A stretch of 64,000 nt of DNA from Anolis carolinensis (Eukaryota). Made by a program: the position numbers and the translations under genes. The notes under the pieces were generated by a model that made no database searches, was not told the DNA's origin, and worked only from the letters and a program-made list of their open reading frames with translations. Positions 10,701 to 13,700 of this stretch are shown here, one piece after another (within the stretch, counting starts at the first letter, position 1; each line of letters starts with the position of its first letter). The DNA lies in the NCBI RefSeq assembly GCF_035594765.1, contig NC_085844.1, forward strand, positions 17,189,923 to 17,253,922, in the 5' to 3' direction.

Positions 10701-13700
10701 GAATGTGATGTCTCATGGGCCTTGTAGTCCCGTTCCTAGTACTATGTTGGCAGACGAAGAGGAAAACATGGGATTTACACCGTTTCAGCCAGAAACGGAG
10801 CCCCTGCACCTGCAGGCTGTTTGCCCTCAAGAATCCAGCCAAACAAGCCTTGGGCAGAATTCTCCCCCGTTTTCTCGAAAGGACAATTATAATAGAGATA
10901 GAGGGGCGAGGGAGGCTAATCGCCACTCTCTCAGAATCGCTGCCAGACAATTAGATGATTAAGCCTGTTTCCCTTGGGAAATTCTAAGGAGTCATGCATC
11001 TGGACACAGTTTGGGTTTCACTTCTTGTTCTCCAGGGAAAGTGTTTCTTGGCGGGAAAACAAGATCCTATATAGGTGTTTTACCGCAAGGAGATCCTTGC
11101 GGAGTCAATTCGTCAGCTTGAGGAGTGAGATCGTGTGTGGACTACGCAACTCCAGTTCCTTGTTTCCAGGACCAAGTTCCAAGCCTGCCTTGTTCCCCGG
11201 ACCTCGCCACGGACCTTGTTCTTGCTTCTTGTTGCCTCGTATCAAGTCTTGTTTGCCAAGAATCTAGTTTGTTTTCCAGCCTTGTTGTCAAGCTCCAATG
11301 GACTAAAGGACCTTGTCATTTCCCCACACTTTGCTCGGCAAAGTGTGTGTTTCGGTTATTGGATTATAACTTTGGACCTTAATATCTCCTATTGGACATT
11401 ATTTTCCTGGACTATATTTGACCTTTCCTGAAAGGTCTATTTCTGAACTTTATTCTTCACTTGTTTTTATTGACTTTATATATTCCTTTAATAAAGATAT
11501 TAGATTCTGGTCTCTGCGCATGGTTATTGGTGCTCTGCAGCCTGGGTCCTGACACAGAAGCTGCTTGCTGCCTGAGGGAATCCTTTGTTGGGAGGTGTTA
11601 GCTGGCCCTGATTGTTTCCTGCCTGGATTTCCCCTGTTTTCTGAGTGTTGTTCTTTATTTACTGTGCTGATTTTAGAGTCTTTTAATACTGATAGCCAGA
11701 TTTTGTTCATTTTCATGGTTTCTTCCTTTCTGTTGAAATTGTCCACATGCTTGTGGAGTTCAGTGGCTTCTCTGTATAGTCTGACATGGTGGTTGTTAGA
11801 GTGGTCCAGCATTTCTGTGTTCTCAAATAATATGCTCTGTCCAGCTTGTCTTCTTTTTTGGTGTTTTCCTCCAGATGCAGCTGTGATGAGGGATAAATTC
11901 TAGGTCCTTTGCAGGAAGAATTGTCCTCATTAATGTATTCACCTTCAATTGCATTACTAGGCTCCTGACGGGTGCTTGATTAATCAAGATCACCTGTCTA
12001 AAAACATTACTCATACTGTAAACAGGATTTATTTTTTCTCAGTGTACCCAAAGCTGATTGGCTAATTGGTATCATGCTGTCATGCTCCTACTTATGTCAT
12101 TCCTGATTAGTTGAGACAAGGAATGAAAAAGGAACTTTAACCAGGAAGGAAAAATGTGCCAAAGCATCCTCAAAAAAGGCAACAAACAGGACTGAAAGAA
12201 ATTAATAATCTTAAGCACCTCTTACCCCAAGTACTAATTTCACTTCTTAAAACAAGAAAATATTTAGGTCACATGATAACATTTTACAAGTTGGGCTGGG
12301 AGTTTGATTTTTTTTTCTAATTTAACTTCTAATGCTATGAATCAAAGTTATGTATTTCTGTGGTTGGTATCTATTAAATATATAGATGTATTACTAGAAA
12401 ACAGATTAATTTATAGCTTACATTAAAAACAAATTAAAGACCATAAAAGTGGTTCCTTAGAGCTTTTCATAATTCCTCAAAGACCAAGGCACAATTTATA
12501 TATATATATACACACACACACACACACACACACACACACACACACATATACATATATTGGAAAAGCTGTCCTCAGACTGAAAATAATGGATATATTAAGT
12601 TTTCCTTCAAATTAATCCAGATTAAAAGATTGCTGTCTGAGGTCCTCTCTAAGCTAATTTTAAATGGGCCTTGAAATTTCCTTGGTTTTTATATCTGTAT
12701 TCTCTGTAGTCTCTCTGCCCGACTAGTCATTTTGATGATGTTATTATTTCTGAGTTGCTGTGAGTTTTCCGGGCTGCATGAGCATGTTCCAGAAGCTGCT
12801 TGTTGCCTGAGGGAATCCTTTGTTGGGAGGTGTTAGCTGGCCCCTATTTTCTGAGTGTTGTTTTTTATTTACTGTTCTGATTTCAGAGTTTTATAATACT
12901 GGTAGGCAGATTTTGTTCATTTTCATGGTTTCCTCCTTTCTGTTGAAATTGTCCACATGCTTGTGGATTTCAATGGCTTCTCTGTGTAGTTTGACATGGT
13001 TGTTGTTAGAGTGGTCCAACATTTCTGTGTTTTTCCAATATACCTCACAACCTCTGAGGATGCCTGTCATAGATGTGGGCAAAACGTCAGGAGAGAATGC
13101 TTCTGGAACATGGCCATACAACCCAGAAAACTCACAGCAACCCAGAAATATTCATTCTTGCTCTTTTAAACAGTTCTTTCAGATTTGTGTGAAACAAACC
13201 CCTCTGCAGTATCTGTTGAATCAGATAGGAAAGAGGAATAAAATATGTTCAACGTCAGCTTTCAGACATCCGTGCGTGATATGCCTGATTTCAAAAATTA
13301 TTGCAGGAGGTAGTTGCCTTTGTTATTAAGTGAATGCTTCATTTCCTCCCACCAGCCTTCGTAAAGTCATTATTTAAGTGACCTTTTATACTGGGATGCG
13401 CTCACATTTTAACATTGTTTTTTGATGAACAGACTGTGGGAGGTGCTTTTAAAAGACGCTGCACTTGTGCTTTTAAATTTAGAAAAGCTCATGTGGGAAA
13501 TGCAAATCGCCTTGTGATTAACCACATGCAGTTTATTAGCTGGAAGTCAACAAATGCATATATAAATTTCATCCAAGGAGTGGGAAAGAGAACGTGCAAC
13601 TATTTACCCTTTGGGTTTTCTGGGTGAAATGTCGACAGGTGGCCCTGGGAGAGGCATGTCCTTGGGAAACATGTCCACCCACATCTGCACACGACCCTTT

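Follow-up and report, generated by a model that had tools for sequence, protein, structure and literature searches.

A conserved open frame in Anolis Gypsy solo LTRs as the probable C-terminal end of Pol

The window, a 64,000-nucleotide stretch of the Anolis carolinensis genome, contains two solo LTRs of a Gypsy chromovirus, LTR-1 and its relative LTR-2 from an older sister subfamily, which sit between minus-strand exons of a ferlin gene and are antisense to that host gene (Table 1). The ferlin exons were found at 4803-5102, 14622-15101, 24035-24271, 48269-48487 and 53451-53711; two of the five match Ferlin_C/FerB, the top PDB match is otoferlin, and the paralogue is perhaps FER1L6. LTR-1 lies inside another repeat family (10607-10703 and 11555-11844), perhaps of the Bov-B/Sauria type, with related copies at 12698-13031, 2148-2502 and 35727-36224. 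A minus-strand frame at 11450-11812 may be the end of a Penelope-type endonuclease; a Pfam search returned nothing useful for it.

Both LTRs have TG...CA ends and 5-bp target duplications. Perfect 5-bp duplications flanked 21 of the 30 LTR-1-group matches, the remainder being 5′ or 3′ LTRs (eight) or mismatched (one), and 25 of the 30 LTR-2-group matches. Re-reading of the sequence reproduced the 84-aa frame of LTR-1, from the ATG at 10708 to a stop ending at 10962, the homologous 91-aa open frame of LTR-2 (27926-28201), the 21-nt difference between them and the codons cited for the basic motif. Another in-frame ATG at 10687, upstream of the LTR-1 frame, belongs to flanking DNA beyond the LTR.

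Similarity between the two LTRs was unequal among reading frames: the local BLOSUM62 score was 95 in the shared frame and at most 43 in the other 35 frame pairs, and the score of 95 was reached by none of 5000 shuffles (maximum 64). At the DNA level, identity was 0.65 in the frame, below the 0.80 in the 3′ part of the LTR. The conserved frame is genuine coding sequence shaped by selection; its cause is ordinary, and it is no gene of its own.

Table 1 Features of the two solo LTRs in the window
Feature	Position	Strand	Remarks
Solo LTR-1, Gypsy chromovirus, 851 bp, TG...CA	10704..11554	+	5-bp target duplication at 10699-10703 / 11555-11559
Probable Pol/integrase C-terminal tail in LTR-1 U3, 85 codons from first LTR codon	10705..10962	+	same peptide ends Pol in L031, L032, L094, L095
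Acidic block DEEENMGF, predicted disordered part of tail (LTR-1)	10753..10776	+	
SPxF motif (LTR-1 tail)	10861..10872	+	20 residues ahead of basic motif
HMGN-like basic motif, LTR-1	10921..10944	+	RHSLRIAA, private variant, 1/123 tails
Putative TATA-like element, LTR-1	11068..11073	+	from sequence; ~30 nt 5′ of self-primer box
10-nt box complementary to primer-binding site, LTR-1	11099..11108	+	putative transcript 5′ end, U3/R border
Poly(A) signal, LTR-1	11490..11495	+	
Solo LTR-2, older sister subfamily, 882 bp, TG...CA	27922..28803	+	5-bp target duplication
Probable Pol tail in LTR-2, 92 codons	27923..28201	+	
RRSARLAA in LTR-2 tail	28160-28183	+	
Self-primer box, LTR-2	28350-28359	+	
Poly(A) signal, LTR-2	28732	+	

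Pol read-through into the 3′ LTR

A genome search with LTR-1 returned match pairs about 5.3 kb apart, and each of the two pairs turned out to bound a full-length Gypsy element, its two LTRs being 99.3-99.5% identical. The gag of these elements contains a zinc knuckle, and their Pol carries protease, RT, RNase H, integrase and chromodomain; Pfam analysis of the Pol of the full-length element L031 confirmed the order PR-RT-RNaseH-integrase and the chromodomain (PF00385, E 2e-9). No stop followed the chromodomain, and a 26-residue linker containing the polypurine tract led directly into the tail peptide and its stop codon. In L031 (1244 codons), L032, L094 and L095, Pol and the LTR tail formed one unbroken frame.

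The exact pattern used to find tract-LTR junctions, which favours young copies, matched 4460 times genome-wide. The chromodomain was in frame with the tail in all 30 consecutive junctions, counted from the first on C1, and 29 of these 30 kept the basic motif. Among the 150 best-scored of 21,373 candidate chromodomain-plus-tail matches, a set biased by that choice, 145 were free of stops. The top protein matches to the LTR frames were from Anolis carolinensis: seven Anolis integrase/chromodomain entries in UniRef covered the tail query over 100% of its length, and the tail closes the A. carolinensis entries P0002-P0007, named 'Gypsy retrotransposon integrase-like protein 1', which are automatic annotations that give it no family or function label.

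Very probably, then, the 84-codon frame represents the end of Pol continuing past the polypurine tract and on into the 3′ LTR, the solo copy being a likely untranslated leftover, a judgement that covers this explanation of the Anolis Gypsy chromovirus frame as a whole. The protein-level conservation proposed earlier was upheld against both refuting conditions named with it, similarity being unequal among frames and the motif being written in varied codons; the accompanying picture of a 'non-coding promoter' region with an ORF of its own gave way to a Pol whose end falls within the 3′ LTR. During reverse transcription, U3 is copied to both element ends, and this duplication passes the tail codons to all 5′ LTRs and all solo LTRs. 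Partial LTR duplications were also seen at L003 (G000:C1:263786169-263787345) and L096:6550-6901, with a truncated element joining the LTR start to chromodomain DNA.

The LTR-2 subfamily is older (91-96% identity) and almost entirely solo. Among 30 loci surveyed for junction DNA on the LTR-2 side, eight had no junction and 22 could be scored: 12 were in frame by distance, L142 and L143 among these having other breaks, and in 10 the chromodomain and the tail were in different frames. All of the five junction copies closest to LTR-2 (L137-L141) belong to these 10, which counts against read-through. In L138, L147 and L155, the integrase was open for ~390-420 codons and the break fell in or near G runs before the tract; the sister subfamilies L148, L151, L153 and L156 were open throughout, and the LTR-2 tail itself gave a dN/dS of 0.27-0.55 against all 11 other representatives. 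The breaks on the LTR-2 side likely reflect homopolymer slippage or assembly error, and we infer that the subfamily of LTR-2 also used read-through. Frame breaks at G runs between chromodomain and tract clustered in the older subfamilies (L137-L141, L147, L155, L159 and L161).

Architecture and proposed role of the tail

Motifs were counted in 123 intact tails among 138 distinct copies, 15 copies being excluded as truncated, shifted or off-pattern. Intact tails were 85-97 aa long, the acidic N-terminal part being the variable portion, and length differences among intact subfamilies amounted to whole codons. SPxF was present in 121 of the 123, its spacing to the basic motif was 20 residues in every one, and the stop came 5 residues past the basic motif in 122. 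The commonest forms of the motif were RRSARIAA (60 tails), RRSARLAA (18) and RRSLRIAA (15); the R[RK]SxR[LI] core occurred in 109/123 tails, the window LTR-1 copy departing from it. The last 33 residues carry a net charge of +5 to +6. AlphaFold prediction from a 14-sequence alignment gave disorder followed by one helix at 58-83 (pLDDT ~70-80); the single-sequence fold of P0001 was poor, with a mean pLDDT of 44.6, and its helix call only was used.

Pfam analysis of both tails at E 0.1 returned no families and no HMG14_17 match, a genome search with PF01101 (HMG14_17) found three loci, all elsewhere, and a PDB sequence search with the tail gave no chains at E 10. The ESM Atlas contributed one unnamed match at 0.81, and a tail-profile search gave 10 matches, all to Anolis proteins. 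A resemblance of SSPPF to the targeting motif of Ty5 was considered and dropped when no paper on it was found.

The basic motif resembles known nucleosome-binding peptides. The relevant sections of two papers describe acidic-patch binding via the same three arginines in yeast Dot5 (RRSARIAT), tardigrade Dsup (RRSSRLTS) and HMGN (RRSARLSA) (PMC13347269, PMC12480509). The Anolis forms RRSARIAA and RRSARLAA are 7/8 identical to the Dot5 and HMGN motifs, respectively. Unlike its HMGN counterpart, however, the Anolis motif stands at the end of an integrase and in a predicted helix, and the window LTR-1 copy is without the second of the three arginines. HMGN-type motifs are extended, which counts against an equivalent role for a motif lying in a predicted helix.

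We propose that the mature integrase would retain the tail, an acidic and disordered spacer with an SPxF-plus-basic-helix module at its end; this module would help the integration complex to reach or hold chromatin. Judged from the motif, the H2A-H2B acidic patch, contacted via the RRSxR arginines beside the group I chromodomain, may be the likeliest target, an assignment that we hold tentatively; nuclear import and the binding of DNA or another partner are each somewhat less likely. Somewhat doubtful is the fuller picture of a two-handed nucleosome grip, in which the group I chromodomain would hold methylated H3 tails while a U3-encoded, HMGN-mimicking arginine anchor would hold the H2A-H2B acidic patch. 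If the motif does bind the acidic patch, it would represent HMGN mimicry by a retrotransposon integrase, and a literature search found no paper on an HMGN-like or arginine-anchor motif in such an integrase; binding would also offer a simple handle on integration-site choice by vertebrate chromoviruses. Were the two-handed grip true, a chromatin-tether exon, ready for use, would lie dispersed across the genome in thousands of solo LTRs, and host transcripts could occasionally splice into it.

Granted that the frame is the end of Pol, we give slightly better than an even chance to the view that the basic end serves as a signal for nuclear localisation or as a helix that binds DNA, its likeness to HMGN being coincidental. 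The net charge of the last 33 residues and the predicted helix would suit such a role, and the basic string that closes a Rhineura relative (P0040, P0170) is a different one; yet the invariant Ser and the R-x-S-x-R spacing fit the Dot5/Dsup arginines better than a simple basic cluster, and the motif arose from shuffled tails at a frequency of 8.5e-5, for a pattern picked after the data had been seen.

Selection, transcription and the fate of solo copies

The comparison of synonymous with nonsynonymous rates that the initial annotation had suggested, made on codon-aligned frames, gave a dN/dS of ~0.33-0.39, with ~1 in two forward-shifted frames. For 12 representatives, the tail value was 0.33, against 1.17 and 0.99 in the forward-shifted frames and 1.06 and 1.33 in further shifted frames, all of these ratios being rough because synonymous sites are near saturation in distant pairs (pS 0.68). 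An antisense frame that shares third positions with the sense frame gave 0.53-0.56, which we read as a shadow of the sense frame. Across 13 junction copies, dN/dS was 0.08 in the integrase core, 0.07 in the chromodomain, 0.47 in the linker and 0.36 in the tail, and the eight motif codons gave 0.15.

Variants within the two groups were compared under an assumed transition weight of 3, private variants being those found in one copy, which arise mostly after insertion. Private variants of the LTR-1 group (30 copies; 10 synonymous, 22 nonsynonymous, no stop) gave a ratio of 0.81 (p=0.55), and those of the LTR-2 group (30 copies; 22, 50 and 5 stop) a ratio of 0.87 (p=0.60). Shared variants were constrained in the LTR-1 group (19/22/0, ratio 0.42, p=0.007), and no selection was seen on those of the LTR-2 group (9/22/1, ratio 0.89). 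The window LTR-1 and LTR-2 each carried three private codons among 29 compared, all nonsynonymous, with one private LTR-1 codon falling in the basic motif. Judging by these substitution patterns, selection worked on the replicating elements and not on solo copies, being purifying between subfamilies and neutral after insertion.

The LTR complement of the primer-binding site (PBS) was 10 nt long in six of nine PBS-bearing copies, 8-9 nt in two and missing in one; self-priming is described for Tf1/sushi elements in the part of PMC6317226 that treats them. The transcript 5′ end would thus lie near 11099, ~30 nt past the TATA-like element and ~140 nt downstream of the stop, and because the putative start lies downstream of its stop, the frame would belong to U3. 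Transcription would then reach the tail codons only in a full element, through its 3′ LTR, or where a host promoter drives read-in, and solo LTRs likely do not express the frame. The ATG of the LTR frame appears to overlap the att or LTR end motif, an integrase att motif of the TGTNANR type being given in Table 3 of PMC3601003.

These observations bear on the idea of an independent micropeptide that, besides the Pol tail, would be made from the ATG at LTR position 5 in solo copies or 5′ LTRs. Its Met is invariant in 14/14 aligned representatives, most solo copies keep the frame intact, and some predicted gene models of Anolis have the tail at their end or within them (P0037, P0008, P0168). We nevertheless regard it as highly improbable: the ATG belongs to the att motif, the frame lies upstream of the putative start site and would therefore have no promoter upstream of its ATG, private variants are neutral and include five stops in the LTR-2 group, the two LTRs in the window run antisense to the host gene, and intact frames are expected anyway at 93-98% identity. 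The reading of the shared blocks as promoter or att motifs at the DNA level, with an open frame that is incidental, draws on the promoter nature of U3 and on the overlap of the first two codons with the att site. Its probability is next to negligible in view of identities of 0.55/0.52/0.35 by codon position, third positions being least conserved, of different codons at 16 of the 27 residues identical between LTR-1 and LTR-2, of a motif written in varied codons (TCT, AGC and AGT for Ser, five codons for Arg), of whole-codon length differences and of dN/dS ~1 in the shifted frames.

Several Anolis gene models, P0037 (XP_062826559.1), P0008, P0224-P0226 (ATP13A5-like), P0168 (PDZD9) and P0009, end or start in frame with the LTR tail; they are either annotation artefacts or cases of real solo-LTR exonisation. 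On the Pol-tail reading, a conserved ORF found at the 5′ end of a vertebrate Gypsy solo LTR should be taken for a Pol tail and not for a new gene.

Relation to known systems

By its sequence features, the element fits the V-clade (Tf1/sushi) of Ty3/Gypsy chromoviruses. Its PBS is complementary by sequence to the LTR, which suggests self-priming and not priming by a tRNA, and its chromodomain belongs to group I, with three aromatic cage residues that align with those of HP1-family chromodomains. The passages on this clade in PMC2774666 and PMC6317226 place Amn-ichi of Anolis carolinensis and Sushi-ichi among the V-clade vertebrate chromoviruses, which likewise have the Gypsy domain order, a C-terminal chromodomain, a self-complementary non-tRNA PBS and TG..CA ends. 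The fish relatives in this clade also read past G-rich tract-like codons; the Anolis tail, at ~85-97 aa, differs in extending beyond SPxF into a basic helix.

The nearest non-Anolis matches were fish and squamate elements. Among 94 non-Anolis chromodomain-bearing relatives, many of them truncated gene models, none had the basic motif, 47 had tract-like G-G-x-V junction residues and 24 ended in SPx[YF]. In models from Rhineura, Salvator and Podarcis, too, an acidic stretch comes after a Val-Met junction like that of Anolis. Judged by the counts, both read-through and an SPx-aromatic motif seem widespread and the basic helix lineage-specific; that the non-Anolis tails lie in LTRs is suggested by the proteins alone. 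In P0013, P0177-P0215 and others, mostly fish V-clade members where named, Pol ends ~25 residues past the tract-like codons, and the conserved RxxSPEY-type C-terminus found there (24/94) may be homologous to SPxF of Anolis.

Among plant chromoviruses, a Pol that reads on into the LTR is already known, and the paper on the Anolis element (Piskurek et al.) may mention the overlap. As set out in the pertinent parts of PMC3059260 and PMC3605345, the Pol of plant CRM group A continues into the 3′ LTR with an extension that carries the CR motif, and that of beet Bingo1-4/7 does likewise, with a chromodomain upstream. CRM group A has the Pol-LTR overlap in common with the Anolis element, and its LTR-encoded part is a putative targeting domain. 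The Anolis element falls outside that group, its chromodomain being located upstream of the tract: whereas the CR motif replaces the chromodomain in CRM group A, the Anolis Pol carries a group I chromodomain before the tract and, in addition, an LTR-encoded second module.
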